In this document: positions 1,811 through 53,114 of the stretch, in pieces | Layout of the letters: every line of letters starts with the position of its first letter | Position numbering within the stretch: position 1 is the stretch's first letter | Origin: an uncultured Chloroflexia bacterium | GTDB lineage: Bacteria > Chloroflexota > Limnocylindria > Limnocylindrales > CSP1-4 | Direction of reading: 5' to 3' | Assembly: GCA_963828165.1 (NCBI GenBank) | Contig: CAWHDR010000001.1 | Location: 768,001 to 832,000 of the forward strand | DNA length: 64,000 bases | The notes under the pieces: model-generated | What the model was told of the DNA's origin: nothing | The model's input: the letters and a program-made list of their open reading frames with translations, nothing else | Databases searched by the model: none | Position numbers and translations under genes: made by a program

Positions 1811-4531
1811 TCAGTCTGCGACCTCGACGACGAGGCTGCCGACCATCCCCGCTTCCGCGTGGCCCTCGACCGTGCACTCCACGACGTAGGTCCCCGGCTC
1901 ATCGATCGTGAACCTGATCCGCTGCGTCTGGCCGGGGCGTGCTCCGGCGTCGACGTTGGCGAGACCGGTCAACTCCCAGTCATGGAAGATCGGGTCGTCG
2001 TTCGTGAACTCGAGGACGACCGTCTCGCCGGCACGTACGCGGAGGTCGGCCGGCATGAACGCGACGCGCTCGGCGGTCACTTCGAGCTTGGTCGCATTCG
2101 CGTCGATGATCCGGTCGGCCGCCATCACGCCGCCAGCCAGCGCGAGCGACGCGAGCGCGATCGCGCCGAGGAACCAGGCCTCGCGCAGGTGCCCCAGCGG
2201 CCCGTGCCGGCCGACTCGGTGGACCGCCTCGGGACGGGCGTCGTACCCGCGCAGCCGGAGCGAGTTGGCGACCACGGACACCGATGAGAGGGCCATCGCA
2301 CCCGCGGCGAGCGCCGGCGAGAGCGTGATCCCAAAGGCCGGGTAGAGGGCGCCCATCGCGACGGGGATCAGCAGGACGTTGTAGGCGAATGCCCAGAACA
2401 GGTTCTGGCGGATGACCGTCATCGTCGCCCGGGACAATCCGATGGCGGCTGGGACCCCGCGCGGGTCGCCGCCGATCAGCGTCACGTCGGACGCCTCGAT
2501 CGCCACGTCCGCGCCGGTGCCGATCGCGATCCCGAGATCCGCCTGGGCGAGCGCCGGGGCGTCGTTGATGCCGTCGCCGACCATCGCTACCGTCCGGCCG
2601 CGGGCCTGGAGCCGCTCCACGATCGCGGCCTTGTCGGCGGGGAGCGTCTCGGGCACGACGTTGTGGGCCGGGATGCCGACCTGCTTGGCGACGGACTCAG
2701 CGGTGGCGCGGGCGTCGCCGGTCACGAGCCAGACCTCGATGTTCGCGCCGGCCAGCTCGCGTACCGCAGCCTGGGCTTCGACCTTGACGGGGTCGCTGAT
2801 CGCGAGCATCCCGGCCGCCACGCCGTCCACGGCGACGATGGCGATCGTCCGGCCCGCCCTCGCCGAAGCCTCGATCGCATCTGCCAGCGGCGCCAGGTCG
2901 ATCCCACCACGCTCGAGCAGCCGACGATTGCCGACGATGACCATGCGGGGCCCGCTGGTCGTCTCGACCGTTCCTTGCACACCGCCACCGATGACCGCCG
3001 CGAAATCCGTGACCCGCCCGAACCCGACCTCGTCCTGGTTCGCGCGGGCGACGATGGCCGCCCCGAGCGGGTGCTCGCTTGCGCGCTCGATCGCTCCGCC
3101 GAGATCGAGCACGTCGTGCACCGTGAAGCCGGGGGCGACGGCGACCTCGGCGACGGTGGGACGCCCGAGGGTCAACGTTCCGGTCTTGTCGAGCACGACG
3201 GTGTCCACGCGATGGGCGATCTCGAGCGCCGCACCGCCCCGGATGAGGATCCCCGCCTCCGCCCCACGTCCCGTCCCGACCATGATGGCCGTGGGGGTGG
3301 CGAGGCCCATCGCGCACGGACACGCGATGACCACGACGCCGATGAACGCCGTCAGTGCCAGCGTGATGCGCGGTTCCGGTCCGAACGCCAGCCATACGAG
3401 GAACGTCCCCGCAGCAACGACGAGGACGATCGGGACGAAGACCTCGGCGATGCGATCGGCCAGGCGCTGGATGGGAGCCTTGCTGCCCTGGGCCCGACTC
3501 ACGAGGTCCACGATCCGGGCGAGCGCGGTGTCGCGGCCCACGCGGGTCGCCCGCATGACGAACGTGCCGGTCGTGTTGAGGGTCGCACCGATGACCTCGG
3601 CGCCGGCGGTCACCTCGACCGGCATGGCCTCGCCGGTCAGCATGCTGGCATCGATCGCGGACCCACCCTCGACCACCACGCCGTCGACGGGCAGCCGCTC
3701 CCCGGGCCGGACGCGCAGCAGGTCACCGACCGCCACCGCCTCGAGCGCTACGTCTTCTTCGCGTCCGTCGGTCACGCGCCGGGCGACCGCGGCCTGCAGT
3801 CCGACGAGCCGCCGGATCGCCCCGGTCGTGCTGGTCTTGGCGCGATGCTCGAGCCACCGGCCGAGCAGGACGAGCCCGACGATGATCGTCGACGAGTCGA
3901 AGTAGGTCTCCGGGTGCAGCCCGGCCTCGTGGATGACCTCGGGAAAGAACGTGACGAAGACGCTGTACAGCCAGGCCGCGCTCGTGCCGACCGCCACGAG
4001 GGTGTCCATGTTGGCGGTGCGATGCCGGGCGGCCCGCCACGCGGCGCGATAGAAGCGGCGCCCGGCCCACGCCTGGATGATGGTGGCCGGCCCGAGCGCG
4101 AGCCAGTTGATGCTCTCCATCGCGACGCTCGTCTGCGGGACGAACATCGCGACCATGATCGCGAGGGCCACCCCGATCGAGACGACCGCCTCGCGAAGCA
4201 GCGAGCGCTCCTCGCGGGCGCGGTCGGCATCGCCGGCGGAGAGCTCCTCGAGCAGGGGGACCGGGGAGGCGTCGGCGTCGCCGTCCCGTCCCGCGACCGT
4301 GCGGACGTCGTACCCGGCTGCCTCCACGGCTTCGACCAGGTCGGCGCGAGCGGCCACGTCCGGGAGGTAGCGGATCGTCGCCATCTCCGTGGCGAGGTTC
4401 ACGCTCGCCGTCTGGACGCCTTCGGTGCGGTTCAGGAACCGCTCGATGCGATTGACGCAAGACGCGCACGTCATGCCCTCGATGGGCAGCTCGATCTCGG
4501 TGGGAGCGGCGTCAGGCCGGCCGGTCGTCAT
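1811..4531 (-). CDS. copA: Cu(I)-translocating P1B-type ATPase with extra C-terminal TM helix and cupredoxin domain
   Basis: GMTCASC HMA domain; CPCAMGLATP, DKTGT, SEHPL, GDGINDAP, YN and MALSS ligands; C-terminal H...CTVEGHAEAGM. Confidence 0.93.
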   Translation of the reverse strand: MTTGRPDAAPTEIELPIEGMTCASCVNRIERFLNRTEGVQTASVNLATEMATIRYLPDVAARADLVEAVEAAGYDVRTVAGRDGDADASPVPLLEELSAGDADRAREERSLLREAVVSIGVALAIMVAMFVPQTSVAMESINWLALGPATIIQAWAGRRFYRAAWRAARHRTANMDTLVAVGTSAAWLYSVFVTFFPEVIHEAGLHPETYFDSSTIIVGLVLLGRWLEHRAKTSTTGAIRRLVGLQAAVARRVTDGREEDVALEAVAVGDLLRVRPGERLPVDGVVVEGGSAIDASMLTGEAMPVEVTAGAEVIGATLNTTGTFVMRATRVGRDTALARIVDLVSRAQGSKAPIQRLADRIAEVFVPIVLVVAAGTFLVWLAFGPEPRITLALTAFIGVVVIACPCAMGLATPTAIMVGTGRGAEAGILIRGGAALEIAHRVDTVVLDKTGTLTLGRPTVAEVAVAPGFTVHDVLDLGGAIERASEHPLGAAIVARANQDEVGFGRVTDFAAVIGGGVQGTVETTSGPRMVIVGNRRLLERGGIDLAPLADAIEASARAGRTIAIVAVDGVAAGMLAISDPVKVEAQAAVRELAGANIEVWLVTGDARATAESVAKQVGIPAHNVVPETLPADKAAIVERLQARGRTVAMVGDGINDAPALAQADLGIAIGTGADVAIEASDVTLIGGDPRGVPAAIGLSRATMTVIRQNLFWAFAYNVLLIPVAMGALYPAFGITLSPALAAGAMALSSVSVVANSLRLRGYDARPEAVHRVGRHGPLGHLREAWFLGAIALASLALAGGVMAADRIIDANATKLEVTAERVAFMPADLRVRAGETVVLEFTNDDPIFHDWELTGLANVDAGARPGQTQRIRFTIDEPGTYVVECTVEGHAEAGMVGSLVVEVAD

Positions 4532-4550
4532 ACTCCAGGGGAGTATAGCA
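4530..4550 (-). promoter_or_regulatory. CsoR-like operator palindrome overlapping an extended -10 of copA
   Basis: ATACTCC-AGG-GGAGTAT at 4530-4546; the minus strand reads TGCTATACTCCCCTGGAGT-ATG. Confidence 0.7.
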
Positions 4551-4593
4551 GACGGTGCCTGGGGATCAGCCAAGGAGGTGGCACACTAGACCG

Positions 4594-5157
4594 ATGCCGC
4601 CCGTCGAGATCGCCCTGGTGACCCTGGCTGGACCGTGGGGCCCGTATCTCGTCGCCGCCACGGAACGTGGTGTGGTCGCGGCCGGCTGGGCGACCACCGA
4701 GGGCGCGATCCTGGCTGACCTCCGTCGCCGACTGGGGCCCGTGGAGGTCGTCGCCGGTGGCCCGGCGGCCGATGTGCTCGCGGCCGCCTTGCCATCCCTC
4801 ATGGCGGTCCTTGAGGGCACGCCGGTGCCGACCGCGTCGATCCCGATCGATCTCGACGACCGCCCGCGCTTCGATCAGGTCGTGCTCGACGCGGTTCGCG
4901 GGATCGGCTGGGGTGAGACGGCAAGTTACGGGGAGATCGCCCGACGCGTCGGCGCGCCGCGGGCGTCACGCGCGGTCGGTGGGGCCCTCGGGCGCAATCC
5001 GATCTCGCTCGTGATCCCCTGCCACCGGGTGATCGCCGCGGACGGCACGCTCGGTGGCTACGGGGGTGACGGCTGGATCGACCGCGACCGGGAGCTCTCA
5101 CGCAAAGAGGCGATGCTGCGGCGAGAAGGCGTCACGGTGGCTCGCCGCGCCCAGTAG
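4594..5157 (+). CDS. ogt: Methylated-DNA--protein-cysteine methyltransferase
   Basis: SYGEIA...RAVGGALGRNPISLVIPCHRV active-site motif. Confidence 0.92.
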   Translation: MPPVEIALVTLAGPWGPYLVAATERGVVAAGWATTEGAILADLRRRLGPVEVVAGGPAADVLAAALPSLMAVLEGTPVPTASIPIDLDDRPRFDQVVLDAVRGIGWGETASYGEIARRVGAPRASRAVGGALGRNPISLVIPCHRVIAADGTLGGYGGDGWIDRDRELSRKEAMLRREGVTVARRAQ

Positions 5158-5246
5158 ACTCCGCCCGAGCCGGTGTCGTCATGCGAGCCGGATCGTCGGG
5201 AACGTGGTGAGGGTCGGGCGCCATCGCCGGCGCCGGTGGAGGGTCG

Positions 5247-7073
5247 ATGAGCGTCGCGAGCGCGCCTGCCCCATCCATGTTCGCCGTGTTCCGGCGGCGC
5301 GACTTCTCCATGCTCTGGCTGGCGCAGCTCATCTCGACGGCCGGATCGTCACTGACGGACCTCGCCGCGGGCATCTACGTGTACCGCGAGACCCAGTCCG
5401 CGCTCGCCGTGGGCCTGACCCTGATGGTCACGGCCATCCCGAGCCTCATCGTCGGCCTGCTCGCCGGCGTCTACGTCGATCGCCACGATCGCAAGCGGAT
5501 CCTCATCGGGACCTGCCTGATCCAGGCAGTCATCGTGGCTGCCCTCGCGTTCGTGATCGGGATCGAATCGATCGCCCTCCCGGGGCTGTACGTCCTGCTT
5601 CTCCTCAATGCGGGCGTGAAGCAGTTCTTCGATCCCGCCCATGACAGCCTGATCCCGGAGATGGCGAGCGACGAGGAGCTCGCAGGGGCGAACTCGTTCC
5701 TCTCCATCGCCTCATTCGGCTCGACGGCCATCGGCTTCGCGGGCGCGGGCCTCCTGGCCAGCACCGTCGACCTGACCTGGGCGTTCATCATCGATGCGGC
5801 CTCCTTCGTCGTCTGCGCGGGGCTCATCGCGCTGATGGGCCGCTATCCCATGCCCAAGCCGGAGGACGACGCGACCGTCGCCGTGATCGTGGCCAACTTG
5901 AAATCGGGTATGGCGACGCTGTTCGGGACACCGGCGCTGCGATCGCTGTTCGTCGTCGGTGCCTTCATGTTCGTCTCGTTCGGCCTGTGGAACGTACTCC
6001 TGCTTCCGTTCTCCATCCGCGAGCTCGGGGCCACCGAGTTCGAGTACGGCCTGCAGGAGGGGCTGACGTCGGTCGGCTTCGTGCTGGGCTCGTTCTTCAT
6101 GGCGCGCTTCTCGAGCCGCCTGCCGGAGCCGCTCTGGATCGTCATCGGCCTCATCGGCATGGGTGCAGCGGGGATCTTCTATGGCCTCGCGACGTCGATC
6201 CCCCTGGCGATCGTGCTCGTGATGATCAGCGGCTTCTTCAACTCTCCTTCGTCGGTAGCACGGTCGGTGCTCCTCCAGCGGCACACGCCGCGTGAGATGC
6301 GGGGCCGCGTGTTCTCCGCCTTTTATGTCATGCGCGACATCATCTTCCTGATCGGCATGGCCGGCGCCGGGCTCGCCGATATCGTCGACATCCGGCTCCT
6401 GATCGTGGTCGCCTCCACGCTGCTGTTCGTGTCCGCCGCGTTCACGCTGGTGGCACCCGGGCTCGGGCTGGCATCGATCCGAGCGGCGAACGCCCGTCTG
6501 CGGGACGCCGAGGCCCCGGCCATGGACGCGACACCGGTGCGACCCGCGACCGTGCCCGACTTCGGCCGCGTGGCGCTCCGCCTGCCGCCCATGTCACGCT
6601 TGTCCGCGGAGCAGCGCGACGCGTTCCTGCACGACGCGACCATCCGGCAGGTGCCGGCGGGTACCCGGGTGGTCGAACGGGGCGACGTCGCGAGCTCGGC
6701 GTACTTCATCCTCGAGGGCAACGCGACCGCCGGGATCCCCGATGAGGACGGATATCGTGGCCTTTCGACCATGGGCGCCGGCGACTTCTTCGGGGAGATC
6801 GCGGCGCTGACCGGGAGTCCGCGCACCGCCGACGTCGTGGCCGATACCGACCTGACGGTGATGGAGGTGCCGGCCGAGGCGCTGCGCGCGGTGATGACGG
6901 TGCCGGAGATCCGCAAGCTCGTCCTCTCGACGCTGACCTCCCGGCTGGTGAGGACCGAGGCGGCGGACCTGCCGCGGCTGGCCGGCATCGACCAGGAGTC
7001 GTTGCGCGACCTGCGCACGCCCCGACGGATCGTGGTCGCATCGGCGGGAACCGCGGCGGACGATGCTTCATAG
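5247..7073 (+). CDS. MFS transporter fused to a C-terminal cyclic-nucleotide-binding domain
   Basis: About 12 hydrophobic segments and AGVYVDRHDRKR motif A; C-terminal GDFFGEIAALTGSPRTADV phosphate-binding cassette. Confidence 0.9.
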   Translation: MSVASAPAPSMFAVFRRRDFSMLWLAQLISTAGSSLTDLAAGIYVYRETQSALAVGLTLMVTAIPSLIVGLLAGVYVDRHDRKRILIGTCLIQAVIVAALAFVIGIESIALPGLYVLLLLNAGVKQFFDPAHDSLIPEMASDEELAGANSFLSIASFGSTAIGFAGAGLLASTVDLTWAFIIDAASFVVCAGLIALMGRYPMPKPEDDATVAVIVANLKSGMATLFGTPALRSLFVVGAFMFVSFGLWNVLLLPFSIRELGATEFEYGLQEGLTSVGFVLGSFFMARFSSRLPEPLWIVIGLIGMGAAGIFYGLATSIPLAIVLVMISGFFNSPSSVARSVLLQRHTPREMRGRVFSAFYVMRDIIFLIGMAGAGLADIVDIRLLIVVASTLLFVSAAFTLVAPGLGLASIRAANARLRDAEAPAMDATPVRPATVPDFGRVALRLPPMSRLSAEQRDAFLHDATIRQVPAGTRVVERGDVASSAYFILEGNATAGIPDEDGYRGLSTMGAGDFFGEIAALTGSPRTADVVADTDLTVMEVPAEALRAVMTVPEIRKLVLSTLTSRLVRTEAADLPRLAGIDQESLRDLRTPRRIVVASAGTAADDAS

Positions 7074-7075
7074 GG

Positions 7076-7142
7076 TGTGTCACAGCTGACAGGCGCCACG
7101 TCGCGCGCTGGCCTTGGCTCGCCGAGGGACTGGGCGTACAGT
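7076..7142 (+). promoter_or_regulatory. Putative sigma70 promoter with upstream Crp-like box for the small peptide gene
   Basis: TGTGT-N6-TGACA at 7076-7091 (2 mismatches to TGTGA-N6-TCACA); TTGGCT(7114)-N17-TACAGT(7137-7142). Confidence 0.5.
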
Positions 7143-7184
7143 CCGCAGATCAGACCGCTGGACGAGGGACGAAAGGGGCCGGAC

Positions 7185-7397
7185 ATGGTGCGACAGAGGA
7201 TGAAGCTCCCCAAGGATCAGGCCTTGGAACCCGCGGACGTTGGGCCCAGCGCGACCGGCACCGAGGACGACGTCGAGGGCCACGGTTTTCCGGTGACGGC
7301 ACCTCCGAATCCGGTCATCGGCCGCGGCACCGGACATGGCGGGGAAGCGACCCCGACCGAGGAGGACGCGACCGACGTCAAGGGGAACCTGCGCTAG
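7185..7397 (+). CDS. Small acidic 70-aa protein, candidate precursor peptide (EDDVEGH ... TDVKGN)
   Basis: GAAAGGGG RBS before the ATG at 7185; GC3-biased codons; flanked by its own promoter and terminator. Confidence 0.7.
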   Translation: MVRQRMKLPKDQALEPADVGPSATGTEDDVEGHGFPVTAPPNPVIGRGTGHGGEATPTEEDATDVKGNLR

Positions 7398-7427
7398 TAA
7401 CGATCTGTCGCTGCACCGACATCGTGG

Positions 7428-7456
7428 CGACCACCCGGGCCGGGGTGGTCGTTTCG
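7428..7456 (+). terminator. Intrinsic terminator-like hairpin after the peptide gene
   Basis: CGACCACCC-loop-GGGTGGTCG followed by TTTCG; lies between convergent genes. Confidence 0.6.
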
Positions 7457-7458
7457 AT

Positions 7459-8274
7459 TCAGGCCGGCGTGCTGGCCGTCGCCGCGAGGAGCGCCTTGAT
7501 CTCGAACGGCGTGGCCGCCGCATAGCGCGACCGCAGGCGCGCGGCCTGGGCTGCCAGATGGGGCGCCGCGAACGAGTTGCCCGTTGCCCGGATCCGCCCG
7601 CCATCGCGCCAGGGCACGTCCACGTCGACACCGAAGGCCCCGAATTCCACCGGTGGCGAAGGGTTGTAGAACCAGGCGTCCGGATCGGGGATGTCGTGCG
7701 CGGCAACCGACACGACGGCGGCGAAGAGCGAGGGATACGAGGGGCCTGGGACGTTGTTCGCTGCACAGACCAGCAGGACGTTGGCAAAATACGCCCGATC
7801 CGCGAGCTCGTGGAATGCGCTGAACATCGCCTCGCTCCGAGAGGACAGGCTCAGGTTCACGACCCCAATTCGCTGTTCGATCGCCCACTCGACGGCCGCG
7901 GCGACGGCCCGGCCCTTGCCGCGGTTGTCCGCGCCGAGGACCCGGATCGACACCAGTTCGACCGCCGGCGCGATGCCCGCGATGATGCCGGCGCACGCAG
8001 TCCCGTGCCCGACGAGGTCGGCGCCTTGCGGGTCGTCGACGACTGCGGCGTCCTCACCGTCGATGTCCACGCGCATGCGGCGCGTGACGCGCCCCCGGAC
8101 GCCGGGGTGATCCGCGTCGACCCCCGAATCGACGATGGCCACGACGACACCGGCGCCATCGGTTTCCCCGAAGACCGCGTCACGATCCAGCCGGCCGAAT
8201 GGCCCGTCCCGCGTGAGCCCGGCCCGCGCGTCCGCGGCGAAGGCCTCGCTCCAGGCCGGCAGGGTCACGGTCAT
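7459..8274 (-). CDS. S8 (subtilisin-like) serine peptidase, minimal and without signal peptide
   Basis: IVDSG (Asp), HGTACAG (His), GNSFAAP (Ser) and AANN oxyanion Asn. Confidence 0.9.
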   Translation of the reverse strand: MTVTLPAWSEAFAADARAGLTRDGPFGRLDRDAVFGETDGAGVVVAIVDSGVDADHPGVRGRVTRRMRVDIDGEDAAVVDDPQGADLVGHGTACAGIIAGIAPAVELVSIRVLGADNRGKGRAVAAAVEWAIEQRIGVVNLSLSSRSEAMFSAFHELADRAYFANVLLVCAANNVPGPSYPSLFAAVVSVAAHDIPDPDAWFYNPSPPVEFGAFGVDVDVPWRDGGRIRATGNSFAAPHLAAQAARLRSRYAAATPFEIKALLAATASTPA

Positions 8275-9092
8275 CGGCGGGGCCCCGATCCGGAGCCGCG
8301 GTGGGGCGGGCGTCGGCGGAGCAATGCCTCGAGCCAGTCTGCCGCGAGCTCGATCGAATCCGGATCGACGTCGCGCAGCCGCGCGATCTGGTCGGCCAGC
8401 CGCCAGGTCGGGTCCTCGGGATCGGTCGACAGGGCCCGCGTCGCGTCGCTGACGAGCGCATCGATCGCCGTGTCGTCGAGCGCCCGCTCACCGGTCTCCG
8501 TACCGTCCCGCGCGGCGAGCGCGGCGAGCGCGACGAGGGCGGCGCGCAGGAGCGAGACCGCGTCCCCGGCCGAGCGACGGCGTCGGACGAGCGTCGTCGC
8601 CGCGGACGCAAGGACGCCCGCGATCTCGAGGTCGCGCAGGGTGAACGTCCCGCCGCGCCGGTCGAGGACCTCCAGCACGCCGATCGTGCCGTCCGCGTCG
8701 CTGAGCGGTGTCGCGAGGATGGACGCGGGGACATAGCCGGTGGCCTCGGCGATGGTGCGGTCGAATCGAGGATCGGTCGTCACGTCCGCGATCGCGAGTT
8801 GCTGGCCGGTCGTGAACGCGTAGCCCGCGATCCCCGCAGCCGGATCCAGCTGCATCCCGATCACGTCGCCGCCGGCCGAACCCGCGCTGGCGAGGAACAC
8901 CAGACGGTCGGCGGTGGGGTCGTGGACCGCGACCGAGGCCGCCTGGGCGTCGAGCACGACCGTCGCCGTCGTCACGATCGTCGCGAGGAGGTCGTCATCG
9001 GCGACGGGGGTGATCCGCTGGGCCGCCTCCAGGCGCCGCGCCACCGCAGCGATGGCCAGCAGCGTCTCGTCGGCCGCTCGGCGCTCGGTCAC
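8271..9092 (-). CDS. Stand-alone GAF domain protein
   Basis: GIAGYAFTTGQQLAIADVTTDPRF...SILATPL...IGVLEVLD is a GAF signature; 4-bp overlaps with both neighbours. Confidence 0.85.
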   Translation of the reverse strand: MTERRAADETLLAIAAVARRLEAAQRITPVADDDLLATIVTTATVVLDAQAASVAVHDPTADRLVFLASAGSAGGDVIGMQLDPAAGIAGYAFTTGQQLAIADVTTDPRFDRTIAEATGYVPASILATPLSDADGTIGVLEVLDRRGGTFTLRDLEIAGVLASAATTLVRRRRSAGDAVSLLRAALVALAALAARDGTETGERALDDTAIDALVSDATRALSTDPEDPTWRLADQIARLRDVDPDSIELAADWLEALLRRRPPHRGSGSGPRR

Positions 9093-9820
9093 CGGCGCGC
9101 AGCTGCGGCCAACCGGGCCGCGTCCGGGATCACGAGATCGTCGCCCTCGAAGCGCAGCAGCCCCTGTGCCACGAAATCCGCGAGCAGGCGGTTCACCGAT
9201 TGGCGCGAACCGCCGATCATCCCGGCGAGCTCGCCCTGCGTGTACGGCCAGGGCAGACGCTGCTCGCCCGTCTCGATCCGTGGCGGCCAGGACCCGCCAT
9301 CGTCACCGCCCGGTAACGCGCGCAGGAGGTGGCGCGCCAGTCGCCCTGGCAGGTCCAGGAAGTGGAGGTCACCGAATTGGGCGGTCAGGCGGCGGATCTC
9401 GGTCGCCAGGGCAGCCAGCAACGCGCGTCGAAGGACCGGCTGCTCGTCCACGAGTCGGTCGAAGGCGTCGCGACGCAGGACCTGGGTCTCCACGACACCG
9501 ACCGCGACCGCCGTCGCGGACCGGGCGGCCCCATCGAGCAGGGCCAGCTCACCGAAGAACCCACCAGGCGCGATCGTCGTCAGGATCGCGGGGTCGGATC
9601 CGTCGCCCGGCGGGATCGTGATCTTCACCCGACCCGAGGTCACGATGAACAAGGCGTCGCCGGGGTCGTCCACGTGGAAGATCGTCTCTCCGCGGCGAAA
9701 GCGGCGCGGTCCGAGCGCTGCGGCCACGATGCCCAGGATCGGCTCGTCGAGACCGGAGAACAGGCGACATTCGCGCAGGGCGTCTTGCGCCAGCGCGGTG
9801 TCTCCGGATCGGGCGACCAT
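9089..9820 (-). CDS. Crp/Fnr family transcriptional regulator
   Basis: GGFFGELALLDGAARSATA cNMP cassette; HTH TQGELAGMIGGSRQSVNR; TACGAT 7 nt upstream suggests a leaderless start at 9820. Confidence 0.92.
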   Translation of the reverse strand: MVARSGDTALAQDALRECRLFSGLDEPILGIVAAALGPRRFRRGETIFHVDDPGDALFIVTSGRVKITIPPGDGSDPAILTTIAPGGFFGELALLDGAARSATAVAVGVVETQVLRRDAFDRLVDEQPVLRRALLAALATEIRRLTAQFGDLHFLDLPGRLARHLLRALPGGDDGGSWPPRIETGEQRLPWPYTQGELAGMIGGSRQSVNRLLADFVAQGLLRFEGDDLVIPDAARLAAAARR

Positions 9821-9867
9821 GTCGCCCATCGTACGCGGGCGGGGATCCCGGCGCGGGGCCGGGGGCT

Positions 9868-10542
9868 TCAGGATCGGGGGATCGGGCGCATCGGGTAGAC
9901 GCCCACGACGACCGGCGTCCGCGGATCGAGCGACAGCTCATAGCCGATCTCGCCGCCACGCAGCAACTCGCCCAGGAGGGAGCCTTCCCGCGATGGCAGG
10001 CCGACGTACACCTTGCCCTGCTCGATCGAGACCTGGGTGACGTCGTCGTCGTCACCGTCGATCGCGAAGCGGCGTCGCAGCTCGTGCATGGGCACGTACG
10101 GGCGGCTCTTGATGAACCGACGGAGCTGTGGCGCGGTACAGCCGTTCGATCGCTCCTGGCCGTTGGCCCCCGCGGGACCATGGCCGTTGGTCGGCCCGGG
10201 ACCGTGGCCGTTGGGGCGTCCGTTGGGGCCGACGGGCGACGGTACCGATCGGTCCCGTCCCATGCCTGCCATGCGCGGCTGTCCGCCCGGGGCAGGTGGC
10301 GGCGGGGGGGCGGTACGCGCGGTGGCGTCGGACTGGGGTCGCTGGTCCTCGGATCGCGGTGCCGCGTGGTCGTGTGACGTTCGCGGCCCTGCGGCGGCCG
10401 TGGCATCGACGGGCAGCGGTGGCTCGCCGTTCGTGTCGACCGGCACGGGCGGTACGCCGGGCCCGGGCCCGGGCGTATGGCGCGCGGGGTCATGACGGTA
10501 CCGGCCGCCCCCGTGCGATCGGCCGTGGTGGCGGCGACTCAT
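9868..10542 (-). CDS. Hypothetical protein with Pro/Gly-rich disordered N-terminus and compact C-terminal domain
   Basis: The C-terminal ~90 aa (QLRRFIKSRPYVPMHELRRRF...VVGVYPMRP) look globular with normal codon usage; start uncertain. Confidence 0.6.
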   Translation of the reverse strand: MSRRHHGRSHGGGRYRHDPARHTPGPGPGVPPVPVDTNGEPPLPVDATAAAGPRTSHDHAAPRSEDQRPQSDATARTAPPPPPAPGGQPRMAGMGRDRSVPSPVGPNGRPNGHGPGPTNGHGPAGANGQERSNGCTAPQLRRFIKSRPYVPMHELRRRFAIDGDDDDVTQVSIEQGKVYVGLPSREGSLLGELLRGGEIGYELSLDPRTPVVVGVYPMRPIPRS

Positions 10543-10697
10543 CGGTGGGCGAACCCGGGATGGGCATCCCGGGCGAGTAGCTCGGCGACGGAACGTCGCC
10601 GTTGGTTGGTGGGCATCGGATCTCAGGTGCTGGGCGGGCCGCTTGGATACGGCACGGTCCCGATGATACCGCACGTGTCCGCCGGTGCCGTCGGCGG

Positions 10698-24677: not shown

Positions 24678-24730
24678 TCGTGCCGGCCGTCGCTCCGGGA
24701 CGGGAGCGTGGCTCCCGTACCATGAGCCGC

Positions 24731-27700
24731 GTGACGACGCGCGTCTCGAGCTCGCTCTTCATCGGACGACAGGCCGAGCTGCAACGGATCATGGGGGCCG
24801 TCGAACGCGCCGGGGCCGGGGAGGCGGCCGTCGTTCTCGTGGGTGGCGAGGCCGGCATCGGCAAGACCCGGCTCATGGACGAAGTCGGAGGGCGCTCGCA
24901 GGACTTGGGGGCGCTCCTCCTCGAGGGTGGGTGCGTCAGCCTGGGAGACGGCGGGGGCCTGCCGTTCGCACCGATCGTGGAAGCGCTGCGGCGGCTGCCG
25001 GCGGCACTCGCCGGGGGCAAGTTTGGCGCGATCGACGTCGAAACACTGCGAACCCCCGCCACGGTCGAGCTCGGTCGACTCCTGCCCGAGTTCGGGACGC
25101 CGGCGGCGGCCGATGCCGAAGGCCCCGGACGCCCGGAATGGATCCAGGCCAGGATCTTCGAGGGCGTGCTGGCCCTCCTTCGTGGCCTTGGCGAGCGGGC
25201 GCCGGTCGTGTGCGTCCTCGAGGACCTCCACTGGGCCGACAGCTCGACCCGCGATCTCGTGGCGTTCCTGGCTCGCAACGTCCGGACCGAGCCTCTCGTC
25301 GTGATCGGGACGTATCGAACGGATGAGCTACATCGCCGTCATCCCCTCCGGCCCTGGCTGGCGGAGATGGACCGACTCCCGCGGGTACAGCGCATGGAGC
25401 TCGCACGGTTCGGACGCGAGGAGCTCAGCGCACAGGTGGAAGCGATCATCGGGCACGCCCCCGAGACCGAACTCCTCGACGCGATCGGGCGGCGGGCCGA
25501 AGGAAACCCGTTCTTCATCGAGGAGTTGCTCGCGGCGGGCGGAGGCACCGCCGTGACCGGGCTGTCGGAAACACTGCGCGAGGTCCTGCTGTCGCGGGTC
25601 TCGGCCCTGTCCGAGGGAGCCCAGCGCATCCTGGGCATCGCGGCTGTGGACGGGCGCTCCGTGGACCCGACGCTGCTCGCGGAGGTCGCTGCACGCCCGG
25701 AGTCGGACCTCGAGGAACCTATCCGCGAGGCCCTCGCGGCGCAGCTTCTCGTCAGCGACATCGACGAAGGGCGGTATCGGTTCCGCCACGCCCTGCTCGC
25801 CGAAGCGGTCTACGACGATCTCCTCCCGTCGGAACGACGCCGGATCCACGCCGCCTATGGGGCGACCCTCGATGCGAGGCCGGTGCCGGACGGCGCCGAA
25901 GGGGCCAGCCTGCTCGCAGCCCTCGCCCACCATGCGACGGCCGCGCACGAGCCCGTCCGTGCCCTGCGCGCCTGGATCGCTGCCGCTCGTGCCGCGGCGG
26001 CCAGCTATGCCTTTGCCGAGAGCGTCCGGTCCTTCGAGCATGCGATCGAGCTGTGGGATGTCGTCCCGGCGGACGACCGCCCCAGCGGCGTTGACGCGTC
26101 GACCTTGCATCACGAGGCGAGCCTGGGGGCGATGATCATCGGCCGCCTGGATCTCGCGGTGGACCTGGCCCGGGTGGCGGTCGAGCTGGTCGATCCCGTC
26201 CGTGATCCCGAACGCTGGGCCGCCGCCAACGAGCGCCTCGCGCGAGCGTCGTGGGTGGCCGGCGCGACCCAGGAGGCGACCGACCTCCTCGAGTCGACGG
26301 CCGCGACGATGGAGCGCTCCGGTCCCTCGCCGGAGCGTGCCCGCGTCCTCGCGGCTCTGGCCGGGGCGTACATGCTGCGCGGCGGACACGCTCGCGCGAT
26401 CCCGGTCGCCGAGGCAGCCATCGACCTCGCCCGATCGACGCATGCGGCGCTGCCGGAAGCGCACGCGATGAGCACGCTCGGAACCAGTCTCTCCCTCATC
26501 GGGCGGTGCGCCCACGGGATCACCGTGTCCCGGGAAGCCTTCGCTCGCAACTTGGCCGACGGCGACATCGACGCCATCGGTCGGGCGTACGCCAACTACA
26601 GCTCGGTCCTGCTCGTCTGCGGTTCATTCGAGGAAAGCCTCGAGGTCGCCGAGGCAGGGGTTGCCTGGGCACGATCCGCTGGCGCGTATGAACAGTACGG
26701 ACGCTTCATCCGATCGAACGTCGCCGAGGCAGAGATCGAGCTTGGCCGATGGGACGCTGCCGAGCAGACGGTCGACGAGCTCGTGGCGGCGAAGGTCTTC
26801 GGCGGGACCCGGATGGGCATCCTCGCCGTCGCGGGCCTGTTCCTCGTGCGGCGCGGTCGCTCGGCCGATGCTCGTCCGCTCCTCGAAGAAGGGAGGGCGC
26901 TCGTGGAGCCGTTGCGGGATGCACAGTTCACTGGGCCGGTGCACGTCGGCTTGATCGAACTGGCATTGACGGATGAAGACGCGATCACCGCGGCGAACGT
27001 CGCGGCCGATGCCCTCGATCGACTGGGGCGGACCGGCGACCACTTCTACGTCACCGAGCTCGCCGCCATAGCCGCTCGCGCCGAAGCCGATGCTGCGAGC
27101 CTGGCTCGTGCGCTCCGCGACGACGCAGGGGCCGCGCGGGCCAGCGCCCGCGCCCGCGATGCCGCGGCGATCCTCGAGCAGATACGGGCCGAGCTGCCCG
27201 GATCGGACGCCTTCGGGGGTCGCCTCGAGAGCATGGTGGCCCTCGCGCTCGCCGAATGCCATCGAGCGGACGGCGACGCGGCACCGGATGCGTGGCGTGC
27301 GGCGGTCGACGCCGCGGATCGGGCCGGCATCGTCTGGCCGATCGCCTACGCGCGGTTCCGGCTTGCAGAGTCGTTGCTCGGGGCGCGCGCGCCACGTCGC
27401 GACGCCGAGGCAGCGCTCGTGGCGGCACATGCGGTAGCGGATGGCCTCGGCGCCGGCCCACTCCGCGGCTGGATCGAAGGGCTCGCTCGCCGGGCGCGGG
27501 TACGGATCGCGGAACCGGCTGCGATCGGCGCCGTGGCAGCGATCGATGGCGTCGTCGATGCGGACCTGCCCTCCGCGGCGGCCGTCGCGCTCGACGGTCT
27601 CGGGCTGACGAGGCGTGAGCTGGAGGTGCTGCCGCTCGTCGCCGCGGGTCACACGAACAAGCGCATCGCGCGAGATCCTGTTCATCAGCGAGAACACGGC

Positions 27701-27803
27701 CGGCGTCCACGTGTCGAACATCCTCGGCAAGCTGGGAGTAGGCACCCGGACGGAAGCGGCCGCCATCGCGGCACGATTGGGGCTCGACCGGGCCGAGGCC
27801 TGA
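24731..27803 (+). pseudogene. Large AAA-ATPase/LuxR (LAL/MalT-like) regulator with a +1 frameshift in the HTH
   Basis: GEAGIGKT, LEDLHWAD and GNPFF motifs; LTRRELEVL...TNKRIA continues as EILFISENTAGVHVSNILGKL in another frame after ~27670. Confidence 0.8.
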
Positions 27804-28316
27804 TCAGTCCGACGGGGGCGTGCGGTGCTCCAGCAGGACGACGTCCCGCCAGCGCCCACCGGGATCGCGCCCCAGGGCTCGCTGGACCCCCACCCGCCGA
27901 AACCCGACGGATTCATGGAGCCGGAGGCTGGCCGTGTTCTCGGCCATGACGCCGGCGAGCAGCGTCCAGAAGCCCGCCTGATTCGCTGCCGGGATGACCG
28001 CCTCGAGCAGCGCCCGCCCCACGCCCCGGCCACGAACCTCGGCCGCGACGTACACGCTCTCCCACGCGACACCGCTGTACACGCGGCGCGATGAATACGC
28101 CGTCAGGGCGACCCAGCCCAGCACCGCCGAGCGCGCCGACTCGCGCGCGACCAGCCGGCAGTCCGGTCGGTGCGACCGATCGAAGTGGTCCCAGTCGGGC
28201 GCCTCGCGCTCCAGCGTGGCGTCGCCCGTTGCGATTCCCTCGGCATAGATCCGGCGGACGATCGGCCAGTCGGCCGGCGTCATGGGATCGATCCGGAATC
28301 TGTGCACCGCCGCCAC
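27804..28316 (-). CDS. GNAT N-acetyltransferase (phosphinothricin/MnaT-like)
   Basis: IYAEGIATG.AT.E, ESVYV...RGRGVG and N.ASLRLHESVGF motifs. Confidence 0.88.
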   Translation of the reverse strand: MAAVHRFRIDPMTPADWPIVRRIYAEGIATGDATLEREAPDWDHFDRSHRPDCRLVARESARSAVLGWVALTAYSSRRVYSGVAWESVYVAAEVRGRGVGRALLEAVIPAANQAGFWTLLAGVMAENTASLRLHESVGFRRVGVQRALGRDPGGRWRDVVLLEHRTPPSD

Positions 28317-49250: not shown

Positions 49251-49410
49251 CGTCCCCCATCCTCGCACGAACCCCGGCCGGTGGCCGCGCGAGACACCGA
49301 CACTCCGGGTATCATGGCGCCGGTCCGACCCTCGGGCGGTTCGGCCGCGATCTTGACCGGTGAGCCACTCCCAGGTGCGGTGCTCGCCGACGTTACCGCT
49401 GAGGATCTGC

Positions 49411-50577
49411 ATGGCGAGTCCCCCCCGAAGTGGCCGTCCCGCGCTCCAGGCTCTCGTCATCGGCGCCATCGCGCTCGGGATGGTTGCGATCGCGATCGTG
49501 GCCGGTGTCGACCTGATCGGGACGAGCCAGCGCGTGGTGACCGGCCTCTATCCGCCGGAGGCGGTGACCGTCCAGGGCCAGCACATCCGCGACCTGTACA
49601 CGATCGTGTTCCTGATCGCGGTCGCCATCTTCTTCCTCGTCGAGGGACTGATCCTGTGGACCGTCCTGCGTTATCGCCGGCGGCCCGAGGACGTGACGCT
49701 CCCCGCGCAGACCCACGGCAACGCGATCGCCGAGGTCGTCTGGACGGTGGTCCCGACCCTGATCGTCGCCTTCCTGTTCGTGATCTCGTGGCAGACGCTG
49801 AACACCGTGGAGGTCGTGTCGGCCGATCCGCAGACCCGGATCAAGGCCGTGGCCGGCCAGTTCCAGTGGACCTTCGAGTATCTCGATGAGAGCGGCGAGA
49901 ACACGGTCTACACGCAGCTCCTCCCGGCCGGCGAGGATGGCGGCCTCGTGCTTCCGGCCGGCCGAACGGTCCAGCTGAGCCTGGAGAGCCCGGACGTCAT
50001 CCACGCCTTCTACGTCCCCCAGTTCCTGTTCAAACGTGACGTCGTGCCGGGCCGGATCAACGTGTTCGAGATCACGGTCAACGAGGAAGACGCCGGCCAG
50101 ACGTTCCGCGGCCAATGCGCGGAGCTGTGCGGGGCCGGCCATCGCCTGATGCTGTTCGACGTCCACGCCTACACGCCCGCCGACTACGACGCCTGGCTCG
50201 AGCAGAAGATCGCCGAGGCCGAAGCGAGTCCGCCGCCGCCACCCTCCGGGGCTCCGTCAGGTGGTCCGCCCGGTCCGTCCGGCCCGCCTGCCGGATCTGC
50301 GCTGGCGGTGACGGCATTGAACCTCGCGTTCCAGCCAACGGAGTTGCAGGCCCCGGCCGACACGCCGTTCAAGATCGACTTCGACAACCAGGACCCGAGC
50401 GTCCCGCACAACGTCGCGATCCACGAAGGGAGCCCGACCGGACCCGAAGTCTTCAGAGGCGAGGTCTTCCCCGGTCCGGCCAAGAAGCCCTACGACGTGC
50501 CGGCGCTCAAGGCCGGCGCCTATGCCTTCATCTGCACGGTCCACCCCAGCATGACCGGCACCCTCACGGTCAACTAG
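49411..50577 (+). CDS. coxB: Heme-copper oxidase subunit II with fused C-terminal cupredoxin
   Basis: EVVWT, DVIHAF and CuA motif CAELCGAGH..M; Pro/Gly linker, then HNV...CTVHPSM. Confidence 0.93.
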   Translation: MASPPRSGRPALQALVIGAIALGMVAIAIVAGVDLIGTSQRVVTGLYPPEAVTVQGQHIRDLYTIVFLIAVAIFFLVEGLILWTVLRYRRRPEDVTLPAQTHGNAIAEVVWTVVPTLIVAFLFVISWQTLNTVEVVSADPQTRIKAVAGQFQWTFEYLDESGENTVYTQLLPAGEDGGLVLPAGRTVQLSLESPDVIHAFYVPQFLFKRDVVPGRINVFEITVNEEDAGQTFRGQCAELCGAGHRLMLFDVHAYTPADYDAWLEQKIAEAEASPPPPPSGAPSGGPPGPSGPPAGSALAVTALNLAFQPTELQAPADTPFKIDFDNQDPSVPHNVAIHEGSPTGPEVFRGEVFPGPAKKPYDVPALKAGAYAFICTVHPSMTGTLTVN

Positions 50578-50586
50578 GAGCATCGC

Positions 50587-52239
50587 GTGGCGACCACCGT
50601 CCTGCACCCCGCCGCCCCGACCTACCGCAGCAACCTGTACGACTGGGTGACGACGACCGATCACAAGAAGATCGGGATCCTCTATGTCGTGAACTCGTTC
50701 CTGTTCTTCTTCATCGGCGGGATCCTGGCCATGCTCGTGCGAACGGAGCTCGCCTTTCCGGGCCTCCAGTTCCTGACTGACCAGACCTACAACGAAGTGT
50801 TCACGATGCACGCGACGTTGATGATCTTCCTGTTCATCATCCCGATGCTGGCGGGCTTCGGGAACTACGTCGTCCCGCTCCAGATCGGCGCCCCCGACAT
50901 GGCCTTCCCGCGCATCAACGCGCTGTCGTTCTGGATGCTGCCGCTGGGCGGGTTCCTGATCCTCCTGGGCTTCGTCACGGGCGGCGCCGCGGCCGCTGGA
51001 TGGACGTCCTACAGCCCACTCGCGCAGGACCGCCCATTGGCCTCGGTCGGGTCGGGGCAAGACTTGTGGATCGTCGGCCTGGCGCTCGTTGGCACGAGCT
51101 CGATCCTGGGCGCGGTCAACTTCCTCGTCACGATCTTCAAGATGCGGGCCCCGGGAATGACCCTGTTCCGCATGTCGCTGCTGACCTGGACCGTCCTCGT
51201 GACCGCCGTGCTCGTCCTGCTGGCCACGCCCGTGTTCACGAGCGCGGTGATCATGCTGTTCATCGACCGCAACCTCGGCGGGAGCTTTTTCGATCCGGCC
51301 AACGGCGGCGACGCGATCCTGTACCAGAACATCTTCTGGTTCTACTCGCACCCGGCGGTCTACGTGATGATCCTCATCGCGATGGGCACGGTCAGCGAGA
51401 TCCTGCCGGTCTTCAGCCGCAAACCCCTGTTCGGGTACAAGGCGTTCGTCTTCGCGACGGTCGGCATCGGGGCGCTCGGATTCTCCGTATGGGCCCATCA
51501 CATGTTCACGACGGGCGCGGTGTACCTGCCGTTCTTCAGCCTCATGACGTTCCTGATCGCGGTCCCGACCGGCGTGAAGTTCTTCAACTGGATCTTCACG
51601 ATGTGGCGCGGCCAGCTCCGGCTCGCGACCCCGCTCCTGTTCGCGCTCGGGTTCCTCACGATGTTCCTGATCGGCGGGATCAACGGCGCCTTCGCCGCCT
51701 CCGTCCCGGTGGACTTCGCTCTCCACGACACGTACTTCGTCGTGGCCCATATCCACTACGTGTTGTTCGGCGGATCGGTCTTCGGGGTGATGGCCGGCCT
51801 GTACTACTGGTTCCCGAAGATGACCGGCCGGATGCTCAACGAGACCCTGGGCAAGGTCCAGTTCGTGCTGATGTTCATCGGCTTCAACCTGACGTTCTTC
51901 CCGATGCACGAACTCGGGTTGTCGGGCATGCCGCGGCGGATCGCGGACTATTCGTCGACCGCCGGCTGGAACGACCTCAACCTGGCGGCCACCGTGGGTG
52001 GCTTCCTCATCGCCGCGAGCATGATCCCGCTCCTGTGGAACGTCTTCATCTCGCTCCGCAGCGGCGAGGTCGCCGGCGACGATCCGTGGGAGGGCAACAC
52101 CCTCGAGTGGGCGACCACCTCGCCACCGCCGCCATACAACTTCGACCGGCTTCCGGAGATCCGCTCCGAGCGACCCGTGTTCGACGTTCGCCATGGCCCC
52201 AAGCCCGGTGCCGCGGCCGTGGCTCCGAGCGAGCACTGA
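50587..52239 (+). CDS. coxA: Heme-copper oxidase subunit I (A2 type)
   Basis: TTDHKKIG, MH, DMAFPR, FWFYSHPAVY, WAHHM, AHIHY and GMPRR motifs. Confidence 0.96.
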   Translation: MATTVLHPAAPTYRSNLYDWVTTTDHKKIGILYVVNSFLFFFIGGILAMLVRTELAFPGLQFLTDQTYNEVFTMHATLMIFLFIIPMLAGFGNYVVPLQIGAPDMAFPRINALSFWMLPLGGFLILLGFVTGGAAAAGWTSYSPLAQDRPLASVGSGQDLWIVGLALVGTSSILGAVNFLVTIFKMRAPGMTLFRMSLLTWTVLVTAVLVLLATPVFTSAVIMLFIDRNLGGSFFDPANGGDAILYQNIFWFYSHPAVYVMILIAMGTVSEILPVFSRKPLFGYKAFVFATVGIGALGFSVWAHHMFTTGAVYLPFFSLMTFLIAVPTGVKFFNWIFTMWRGQLRLATPLLFALGFLTMFLIGGINGAFAASVPVDFALHDTYFVVAHIHYVLFGGSVFGVMAGLYYWFPKMTGRMLNETLGKVQFVLMFIGFNLTFFPMHELGLSGMPRRIADYSSTAGWNDLNLAATVGGFLIAASMIPLLWNVFISLRSGEVAGDDPWEGNTLEWATTSPPPPYNFDRLPEIRSERPVFDVRHGPKPGAAAVAPSEH

Positions 52240-52243
52240 GCCG

Positions 52244-52909: not shown

Positions 52910-52913
52910 CTAG

Positions 52914-53108
52914 ATGCATCCGCTGCGTCATCCTCGCAACGCCATCTTCGTCGGCATGCTGTTCGTGATCGTCGGGGCGGTCTACTGGACGGTGCAGACC
53001 GTCGCCGGCTGGGAGGTCGACTACGCCGGGGTGACCCTGCTCGTGCTGCTCGGCGTCGCGATGGCCGTCATGGCCTACGTGCTCATCGCCGGATCCCCGA
53101 ACGACTGA
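52914..53108 (+). CDS. Small 2-TM protein, resembles the N-terminal half of actinobacterial oxidase subunit IV
   Basis: Two TM helices around YW...D.AG.T.L; inside the cox operon. Confidence 0.6.
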   Translation: MHPLRHPRNAIFVGMLFVIVGAVYWTVQTVAGWEVDYAGVTLLVLLGVAMAVMAYVLIAGSPND

Positions 53109-53114
53109 CGCCCA

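Follow-up and report, generated by a model that had tools for sequence, protein, structure and literature searches.

Introduction

Intracellular subtilisins (ISPs) are held inactive by a short N-terminal pro-peptide, in which a proline moves the scissile bond away from the catalytic serine (PMC6220982, PMC3901451). Here we describe a small-protein gene that lies beside a leaderless subtilase gene in an uncultured Chloroflexia bacterium. The gene occupies positions 7185-7397 (+) of a 64,000-nucleotide stretch of contig CAWHDR010000001.1, which we call the window, and encodes a 70-residue protein, P0001. Limnocylindria-type Chloroflexota are abundant in soil and almost entirely uncultured, and the P0001 family is conserved across this group. 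Around it lies a compact island of genes for cyclic-nucleotide sensing, which encode an MFS transporter bearing a cyclic nucleotide monophosphate (cNMP)-binding domain, a GAF-domain protein, a Crp-family regulator and, at some loci, adenylate cyclases. We favor a direct relation between P0001 and the neighboring Peptidase_S8 protein, hereafter S8.

A conserved gene for a disordered small protein

The reading frame opens with an ATG at 7185 and closes with a TAG at 7395-7397, and its exact translation is the 70-residue sequence given in a preliminary description of this DNA. The GC contents at codon positions 1, 2 and 3 were 0.72, 0.51 and 0.83, like those of the flanking genes. The ratio of nonsynonymous to synonymous substitution rates (dN/dS) was 0.20-0.75 (10 pairwise comparisons; four orthologues), which we read as purifying, fairly relaxed selection. 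P0001 lacks a hydrophobic segment (maximum 19-residue hydropathy -0.09) and carries a net charge of about -5, its N-terminal 16 residues being basic and the rest acidic. Taken together, the coding GC pattern, dN/dS, hydropathy and charge indicate that 7185-7397 is a real, conserved gene with a small, cytoplasmic product, and the homologues agree with this part of the preliminary description.

The 70 residues include 8 prolines and 10 glycines. AlphaFold2 (AF2), run with 129 family sequences, predicted no fold (predicted local distance difference test [pLDDT] 64.5; predicted template-modeling score 0.13) and placed two one-turn helices in the chain, nothing more; P0001 is therefore predicted to be intrinsically disordered. 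We rejected the antisense or alternative open reading frames (ORFs) at 7080-7787, 7217-7381 and 7150-7302, which lacked the coding GC pattern. A GTG at 7077 that would lengthen P0001 was rejected as well: family N-termini align at the ATG at 7185, the upstream “codons” are conserved promoter DNA, and the Shine-Dalgarno-like stretch sits before 7185.

A single-sequence search returned nine close relatives of P0001 (51-90% identity, 69-74 amino acids), and an exhaustive search of representative sequences gave 21 matches at E <= 1e-3. A profile built from 31 members matched 429 proteins at the same threshold. Among the 120 of these matches that were listed, all source names were “hypothetical protein”, and those named by organism came mostly from Chloroflexota or Candidatus Limnocylindrales. 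Judged by these matches, the family appears to be confined to one group of soil Chloroflexota. The ESM Atlas led to unnamed Chloroflexota clusters (best scores 0.83-0.84; recognition 1438 against a benchmark of 2300) and gave no lead. Searching longer proteins for fusions yielded four matches, all of them internal-repeat expansions, with no foreign domain joined to the family.

Neither Pfam, NCBIfam nor PADLOC matched P0001, and Pfam at E <= 1 returned noise only for ten of its relatives. Rfam reported nothing above threshold in 6800-7700; a Guanidine-II candidate inside the coding sequence was rejected (18.3 bits against 32 needed, E 0.4). No plasmid match was obtained by tblastn with P0001 and P0139, a DDVEGH-repeat protein described below. 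Full-text literature searches with variants of the DVEGH motif retrieved unrelated papers only, and a search on MFS, cNMP domain and subtilisin in Chloroflexi found nothing relevant.

Conserved linear motifs and the DVEGH repeat

All conservation and repeat counts refer to 129 family members; two proteins from the representative-sequence search (P0028 and P0030) were repetitive and out-of-family and were set aside. The family N-terminus has the consensus M-x-x-K-R-I-K-L-P-K-E-G-L-V-E-P-E, with P16 in 95% of members, and its basic segment contains the L8-P9-K10 motif (7206-7214, +; L 99%, P 100%, K/R 100%). Next comes the block (F/L)-I-x-x-D-V-E-G-H-G-(L/F)-P-x-T-A-P-P, which includes the first acidic DDVEGH (residues 28-33; 7266-7283, +). 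In its DVEGH (residues 29-33), D29 and H33 were present in 100% of members, V30 and G32 in 99% and E31 in 88%, and G34 follows in 95%. In the F-P-V-T-A-P-P segment (residues 35-41; 7287-7307, +), P40 was invariant, with P36 in 92%, A39 in 91% and P41 in 98%. The third block, R-x-P-G-H-G-G-E-x-x-P, holds the G-H-G-G-E motif (residues 50-54; 7332-7346, +), in which H51 was found in 92% and G52, G53 and E54 in 100% of members; P57 was also among the most conserved positions. The family C-terminus is a partially conserved acidic run followed by D-V-E-G-H-R-R. Here the window carries a degenerate second motif, DVKGN (residues 64-68; 7374-7388, +), which differs from DVEGH by E->K and H->N; family conservation at this site was 58% for V, 70% for E, 64% for G and 51% for H.

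A single exact DVEGH was found in 64 members and two copies in 49; one member had three and 15 had none. A second copy arose by chance in 4 of 22,800 composition-preserving shuffles. The spacing between copies was mostly 34-36 residues, and the second copy usually lay three residues from the C-terminus. By these counts, the DVEGH repeat is real at the family level. Within P0001 alone, DV.G. appeared in 5.2% of 20,000 shuffles of the remaining residues, and DV.G. with at least two acidic residues among the five preceding positions in 0.8% of the 20,000, so that recurrence judged in this one protein is no more than suggestive.

Further inspection of the family revealed variation in unit number: P0033 consists of two complete repeat units, one further unit stands at the N-terminus of P0018 and P0124, and the number is higher still in P0136 and P0137. 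Because P0033 has two full units, the C-terminal DVEGH reads as the start of a truncated second unit. P0001 thus contains a single repeat unit followed by the opening motif of another, and the DVKGN of the window is a decayed DVEGH copy.

The preliminary description had seen DVEGH recur as DVKGN and, weakly, as ADVGP. The former stands as a degenerate copy; the latter (residues 17-21) is a chance match unsupported by the family, whose columns 18-21 hold E/D/Q, R, R/T and P with low information. Acidic residues do precede both main motifs, which bracket a Pro/Gly-rich stretch as described. From this arrangement the layout had been likened to that of precursors of cassette-type ribosomally synthesized and post-translationally modified peptides (RiPPs), in which the motif would be kept while the core varies. 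The family does not show this pattern: P36, A39, P40, P41, H51-E54 and P57 are highly conserved, and the second motif is less conserved than the segment between the motifs (at least two exact DVEGH copies in 50 of 129).

Cysteine occurred in 1 of 129 members and there was no conserved Tyr or Trp, which removes most known RiPP chemistries. We also scanned ORFs chosen by a criterion on third-position GC against Pfam. The scan covered 75 of 108 selected ORFs within 6 kb on either side at 12 loci (introduced below), and 54 of the 55 ORFs selected in the whole window; the remaining one, the frame of P0001, was scanned from its ATG. YcaO, radical SAM, LanB/C/M, ATP-grasp and PqqD-like RiPP recognition element (RRE) domains were all absent from the scanned ORFs, although such enzymes may be encoded elsewhere in the genome. 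The conserved core, the scarcity of Cys and the lack of a modifying enzyme among the scanned ORFs thus leave the cassette-RiPP reading unsupported as originally stated; a protease-processed, unmodified precursor is possible.

Transcription and translation signals

To compare the gene between genomes, we used 12 loci from one scan of species-representative genomes, seeded with two peptide patterns, and aligned their upstream regions. Three nucleotides past the stop codon of the upstream MFS gene lies a 16-bp dyad, TGTGTCACAGCTGACA (7076-7091, +), of the form TGT-N10-ACA, a candidate CRP/FNR-type operator. Its family form is TGT[G/C]N4AG[G/C]NGACA, in which TGT, AG and GACA were invariant across the 12 upstream regions. 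The pattern occurred once in the window, with 0.17 occurrences expected and at least one in 14 of 100 shuffles, and once at the same position in 11 of the 12 loci. CRP sites follow the consensus TGTGA-N6-TCACA, and the TGT-N10-ACA spacing is that of CRP/FNR sites.

Downstream of the dyad lies a -10-like hexamer, TACAGT (7137-7142, +). Its T, A, G and T are the same at all 12 loci, and GTACAGT as a whole hardly varies; transcription may start nearby. A generic sigma-70 scan missed this hexamer, which scores below the 9-of-12 threshold. A Shine-Dalgarno-like AAAGGGG (7173-7179, +) is read 6-12 nucleotides 5' of the ATG, in keeping with the good ribosome-binding site noted previously, and purine stretches of the GGAG/GGGG type stand at equal distance from the start codon in other loci. 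Between the convergent stop codons of the small gene and S8, an 11-bp GC-rich hairpin followed by UUUCGAUUC (7426-7453, +) resembles a terminator (-32.2 kcal/mol, z = -2.5). A GC-rich hairpin of differing sequence was predicted at the same place in 9 of 10 other loci folded, the one in L011 being weak. The conserved TACAGT, the upstream dyad and the hairpin past the stop support the earlier suggestion that the gene is its own transcription unit. It reads as monocistronic, flanked by promoter-like and terminator-like signals that belong to it alone.

A second TGT-N10-ACA element, TGTCGCTGCACCGACA, is located at 7406-7421, past the small-gene stop and before the hairpin. The first 17 kb of the window contain two such strings only (7076-7091 and 7406-7421). 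The core of the second, GTCGCTGCACCGAC, is common to the closest loci, L001-L003; this element could serve as a further operator or amount to no more than a small hairpin.

Gene neighborhood across 12 loci

The common gene order, determined by tblastn with the window proteins, was Cu ATPase (-), MGMT-like (+), MFS-cNMP (+), small gene (+), S8 (-), GAF (-) and Crp (-). In the window, a 608-residue MFS_1/MFS_3 transporter with a C-terminal cNMP-binding domain (5247-7073, +) ends about 110 nucleotides upstream of the small gene. On the other side follow the convergent Peptidase_S8 gene (271 residues; 7459-8274, -), a GAF-domain gene whose stop overlaps the S8 start (8271-9092, -) and a gene for a Crp-family regulator with cNMP_binding and HTH_Crp_2 domains (9089-9829, -), the first of the Crp-GAF-S8 string; all were assigned by Pfam. 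The S8/GAF and GAF/Crp junctions each overlap by 4 nucleotides in the window, pointing to one operon. In the Protein Data Bank (PDB), the GAF domain was closest to the cyclic-nucleotide-binding GAF domains of phosphodiesterases.

By tblastn, every one of the 12 loci has S8, in fragments at L009 and L010, and 11 of the 12 have the MFS gene, which bears out the link to S8/MFS-cNMP loci made in the preliminary description. An intact MFS-cNMP orthologue stood directly upstream in 8 of 12 loci by Pfam, and L010 yielded no tblastn match, only frameshifted remnants. Crp matched in 10 of 12 loci, with none in L006 and L008. Identity to the window was 47-97% for the neighbors and 32-90% for the small protein, which fell to 32% while intact S8 stayed at about 70% or more. 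The outer flanks vary, holding an M24 peptidase or adenylate cyclase-AAA_16-TPR proteins; the upstream flank differs in L011, and the downstream flanks in several of the 12 loci.

Ten of the 12 loci are labeled Chloroflexia, Chloroflexota or Limnocylindrales, and the other two have the same gene order. The latter, L007 (labeled Saccharimonadales) and L009 (Gemmatimonadales), keep the seven-gene order with 47-86% protein identity to the Chloroflexota loci; their bins are probably mislabeled or contaminated.

Adenylate/guanylate cyclase proteins lie just past the GAF/Crp genes in 5 of 12 loci (L004:8314-9375, L006:9618-12173, L008:9636-12155, L009:7597-11826 and L011:8733-11612), several of them fused to AAA_16 and TPR domains and to a DUF7577 zinc-ribbon, and add to the cyclic-nucleotide character of the island. 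The window itself has an AAA_16 protein at 24680-27949, with no cyclase domain detected. We also examined the island as a Pycsar-like defense system: the PADLOC matches were the cNMP-binding domain and a generic subtilase only, with no match for the small protein or the GAF protein.

The adjacent subtilase

The sole Pfam match of S8 was Peptidase_S8, covering residues 40-267 of 271 (E 1.8e-29), with no I9 prodomain. D49, H90, S234 and N173/N174 were invariant in 11 orthologues, so that the catalytic triad and the oxyanion Asn are intact. The N-terminal 35 residues contain no hydrophobic stretch (maximum hydropathy 0.88 over 12 residues), and S8 is accordingly read as lacking a signal peptide. 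Its N-terminal extension of about 20 residues includes an invariant P6-A7-W8-S9, preceded by L/I/V; this segment differs from LIPY/F. The best PDB matches were subtilisin BPN' variants (1e-21), and intracellular serine proteases were matched as well (7y6m, 2e-20; 7xr8, 1.5e-17). S8 scored below the NCBIfam cut-offs for PatA/PatG (17.8 against 421 bits) and QhpE (111 against 165), and below that for mycosin too. An AF2 model from an 11-row alignment was poor (pLDDT 50), and its N-terminus (pLDDT 27-33) was too uncertain to position the extension.

The S8 segment aligned with BPN' residues 100-105 reads N-R-G-K-G-R, in which N117, R118 and G121 were invariant. We take the BPN' strand to pair with substrate positions P3-P5, and a basic strand here would suit the acidic D-D-V-E. 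Complex prediction for S8 (11 rows) with the small protein (129 rows) returned the category “weak support”, with a median score of 0.33 (runs of 0.33, 0.22 and 0.45; best of three controls 0.01). The runs agreed in at least 55% of contacts, and partner pLDDT was at least 37. Of 157 solved complexes, 116 attain the mark for this category, as do 2 of 215 mismatched pairs. With scores of 0.60 or less, only 18 of those 157 complexes attain it, together with both of the mismatched pairs that passed, so a pass at so low a score is likelier to be wrong than right, except where the guess was probable beforehand. The prediction is compatible with binding and says no more than that.

A related DDVEGH-repeat family

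A second unnamed family of DDVEGH-repeat proteins (P0013, P0026, P0138, P0139 and L010:9454-9792) shares with P0001 an acidic DDVEGH(G/S)(F/L) module at similar spacing, and hhalign joined the two families through their DDVEGH motifs (probability 94%, E 9e-8). Unlike P0001, its members lack LPK, TAPP and GHGGE. In these proteins, variable basic spacers separate three to four copies of ...ATEDDVEGHGF..., and the C-terminus is formed by a conserved basic ...ARELARARERDIQ... segment, a basic C-terminal helix.

L010 contains two DDVEGH-repeat genes, at 9454-9792 (-) and 5941-6291 (+). The protein in the syntenic slot has three DDVEGH motifs, with LPK, TAPP and GHGGE all missing; the other gene, of the ARELARARERDIQ-ending type, lies 3.3 kb from the slot, after Crp. 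As the slot protein keeps DDVEGH alone, this motif would be what persists beside the protease. The weight of L010 as proof is limited, since most of its genes are split across frames.

Such splits also affect the MFS gene in L001 and L008 and the ATPase in L008 (L001:4057-5560; L008:634-3349 and 4054-5881), and L009 as well as L010 is touched by them. In these loci from long-read metagenome-assembled genomes, they look like indel errors or decay.

A proposed substrate of the subtilase

We tentatively propose, with a probability of about 30%, that P0001 is a cyclic AMP (cAMP)/Crp-controlled substrate of the neighboring S8, cut after ...DDVEGH. Being cytoplasmic and disordered, P0001 would work through short conserved linear motifs, not through a fold. 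Its promoter dyad would be read most likely by the Crp encoded 1.7 kb away, and its level would then follow cyclic-nucleotide signaling. The acidic DDVEGH/G (the slash marks the bond) would dock in the S8 substrate cleft with Val at P4, Glu at P3 and His at P1. Cleavage would occur after His33 and, where the second copy is intact, again three residues from the C-terminus, separating the basic LPK-containing N-terminal part from the part with G(F/L)P.TAPP...GHGGE. Activity would lie with the acidic fragment that is set free, or with a smaller piece of it; this may exit the cell via the adjacent cNMP-gated MFS pump. Val at P4 and an uncharged P1 suit the general preference of subtilisins.

Several lines of evidence favor this proposal. 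Across the family, the conserved positions cluster in linear motifs, and the chain has no predicted fold. The order MGMT-like, MFS-cNMP, small gene, S8 and GAF (with Crp next, except in L006 and L008) is kept despite the divergence of the small protein, and in L010 DDVEGH is what persists in the slot beside the protease. S8 is leaderless and prodomain-free, with invariant catalytic residues and intracellular proteases among its PDB matches, and its N-R-G-K-G-R strand would suit an acidic motif. A conserved dyad with CRP-type spacing stands upstream of the small gene, and the cluster encodes three cNMP/GAF sensor proteins.

Other observations weigh against it. All 12 loci represent orthologous regions from a single clade; their synteny is therefore suggestive and not independent evidence, and it may reflect inheritance instead of functional coupling. 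The small gene and S8 are convergent and not co-transcribed. A substrate needs its cleavage site alone, yet four or five motifs are conserved. Over half of the family, and the window too, either lacks the second motif or has it in degenerate form. MFS pumps are not known to carry 35-residue peptides. Finally, the dyad matches the CRP consensus in its outer triplets alone, with two mismatches, and two-mismatch matches to this consensus were not enriched in the window (4 found, 11.7 expected); for both reasons, that Crp controls the small gene through the dyad is something we infer.

Alternative explanations

A rather unlikely alternative is that P0001 is a pseudo-substrate regulator. The intact small protein would span the S8 active site and hold the enzyme inactive, or target it, until cAMP signaling shifts its level, acting in trans as the N-terminal LIPY/F pro-peptide of Bacillus-type ISPs, about 18 residues long, acts in cis. 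The invariant L-P-K, or G-x-P, would set a proline such that the bond stays uncut. This explanation shares its context evidence with the substrate proposal. It would also account for the many motifs along the whole chain, as an extended wrap-around interface would have them, and the invariant L8-P9 and the P36 beside the DVEGH site recall the short proline-containing pro-peptide that lies across the active site and keeps ISPs inactive (PMC6220982, PMC3901451). S8, however, has its own N-terminal P-A-W-S segment (with L/I/V before it) that could fill the role, and variation in repeat number is not an obvious feature of an inhibitor. Moreover, the known protein inhibitors of subtilisins are folded.

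We hold it to be likewise rather unlikely that P0001 is a disordered protein whose partner is encoded elsewhere, for instance a stress hydrophilin, a ribosome-binding or RNA polymerase-binding factor, or a protein that works with the cNMP/GAF sensors; its neighborhood would then be phylogenetic inertia. The synteny comes from one clade only, dN/dS is fairly relaxed, and in L010 a gene of the related family with the basic C-terminal helix stands away from the slot. Against this, changes in the outer flanks leave the MFS-small-S8-GAF-Crp block in place, the dyad is conserved, and genes of cNMP signaling lie on both sides.

A distinctly unlikely possibility is a metal-binding peptide, in which DDVEGH, GHGGE and the optional C-terminal DDVEGH would chelate Cu, Ni or Zn. 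H-G-G-E could coordinate Cu(II) or Ni(II) by way of its imidazole, the deprotonated amides of both glycines and the carboxylate of Glu, much as the H-G-G-G of prion octarepeats binds metal, and P0001 would buffer metal or pass it on, in connection with the nearby CopA-type pump. The residues D29, H33, H51, G52, G53 and E54 are invariant or near-invariant, and docking alone would hardly account for an absolutely conserved Gly-Gly after His. A Cu P-type ATPase with HMA and cupredoxin domains is encoded 2.6 kb upstream and occurs in 11 of 12 loci, and variation in unit copy number is typical of metal-binding repeats. By contrast, P0001 has neither Cys nor Met, the usual cytoplasmic Cu(I) ligands, and without a signal peptide it would not meet Cu(II). 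The ATPase gene is two genes off, divergent and absent from L011, and the LPK, EPE and TAPP motifs would be left without a role.

An extended form of the substrate proposal, a cyclic-nucleotide-gated peptide signal, seems improbable to us. Here a leaderless precursor induced by Crp-cAMP would be cut at its DDVEGH sites by the cytoplasmic subtilase, itself expressed together with Crp and a GAF sensor, and its unmodified product, possibly metal-binding via H-G-G-E, exported by the cNMP-gated MFS protein. If true, this would be a new ribosomal peptide system in which second messengers govern production, processing and export with no modifying enzyme.

Very improbable is a cassette-type RiPP precursor, whose core, set between DVEGH recognition sequences, would undergo modification, be cut out by S8 and leave the cell through the MFS protein. 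The motif is repeated in varying numbers of units (P0018, P0033, P0124, P0136 and P0137) beside an S8 protease and an MFS_3-type exporter, but the core is conserved and not variable, Cys is nearly absent and Tyr and Trp are not conserved, Pfam detected neither a modifying enzyme nor an RRE in the ORFs scanned at the 12 loci and across the window, and S8 falls short of both the PatA/PatG and the QhpE cut-offs by the margins given above.

Other features of the window

The copper-type P-type ATPase at 1811-4573 (-) comprises HMA, E1-E2 ATPase and HAD domains and a C-terminal cupredoxin/plastocyanin-like domain at about residues 820-917; this architecture was found in 10 of the 11 loci that have the ATPase. 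With the annotated TTG start, the ATPase gene and the divergent MGMT-like gene share 19 nucleotides, which may mean that one start or the other is misplaced. A 268-residue ORF at 9868-10674 (-), located between Crp and the M24 peptidase, has a coding GC pattern and no Pfam, NCBIfam or PADLOC match. In a cytochrome c oxidase operon at 49360-54263 (+), subunit II (49360-50577) bears an extra C-terminal Cupredoxin_1 domain, as does a subunit-IV-like protein (53115-54263).

Comparison with known systems

In the literature searched, the P0001 family is without a curated family or a paper on its motif, while the kinds of system to which it might belong, a protease with a dedicated small substrate or regulator and an unmodified peptide precursor, are already known. 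Were the protease-substrate link true, it would provide a concrete physiological substrate for an intracellular subtilisin, of which little is known even in Bacillus, and would extend cAMP-controlled proteolysis or peptide release beyond the model phyla. If it is false, the family is still a clean, disordered one built of motifs, and the shared DDVEGH module merits a hunt for its partner.

P0001 resembles Pup/UBact in its acidic, disordered chain of about 65-70 residues and its absolutely conserved G-G-E. However, this G-G-E is internal (residues 52-54), 16 residues from the C-terminus, and there is no sequence similarity; no match to the Pup-ligase family (PafA/Dop type) was found among the 54 scanned window ORFs and P0001.

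With cyanobactin PatE cassettes P0001 shares its short length, a repeated recognition motif and V-E at the presumptive P4-P3 positions, which the PatA site G(L/V)E(A/P)S also has. As in PatA/PatG systems, a subtilisin-family protease is encoded adjacently and unit number varies between relatives. The differences lie in the conserved, Cys-free core, in the scanned ORFs, which hold no heterocyclase, oxidase or DUF domains, and in S8, which is convergent, sits in an operon with regulators and scores far below the PatA/PatG cut-off.

S8 resembles the ISPs (those of Bacillus clausii and Planococcus, and Isp1 of B. subtilis) in consisting of a catalytic domain only, without leader or I9 prodomain, and in having an N-terminal extension, about 20 residues long in S8 and with a near-constant L-P. 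It is no more than a candidate member of this group, given that its best PDB matches are BPN' variants and its AF2 model is poor. The idea of a proline peptide lying in the cleft comes from these enzymes (PMC6220982, PMC3901451). IPI, a reported Isp1 inhibitor, is a folded, Ig-like protein and is never encoded near a subtilisin gene (PMC3901451), whereas P0001 is predicted to be disordered and is encoded next door. In contrast to the ISP pro-peptide, then, the candidate peptide at this locus would be the product of a separate, conserved gene for a disordered protein beside the protease.

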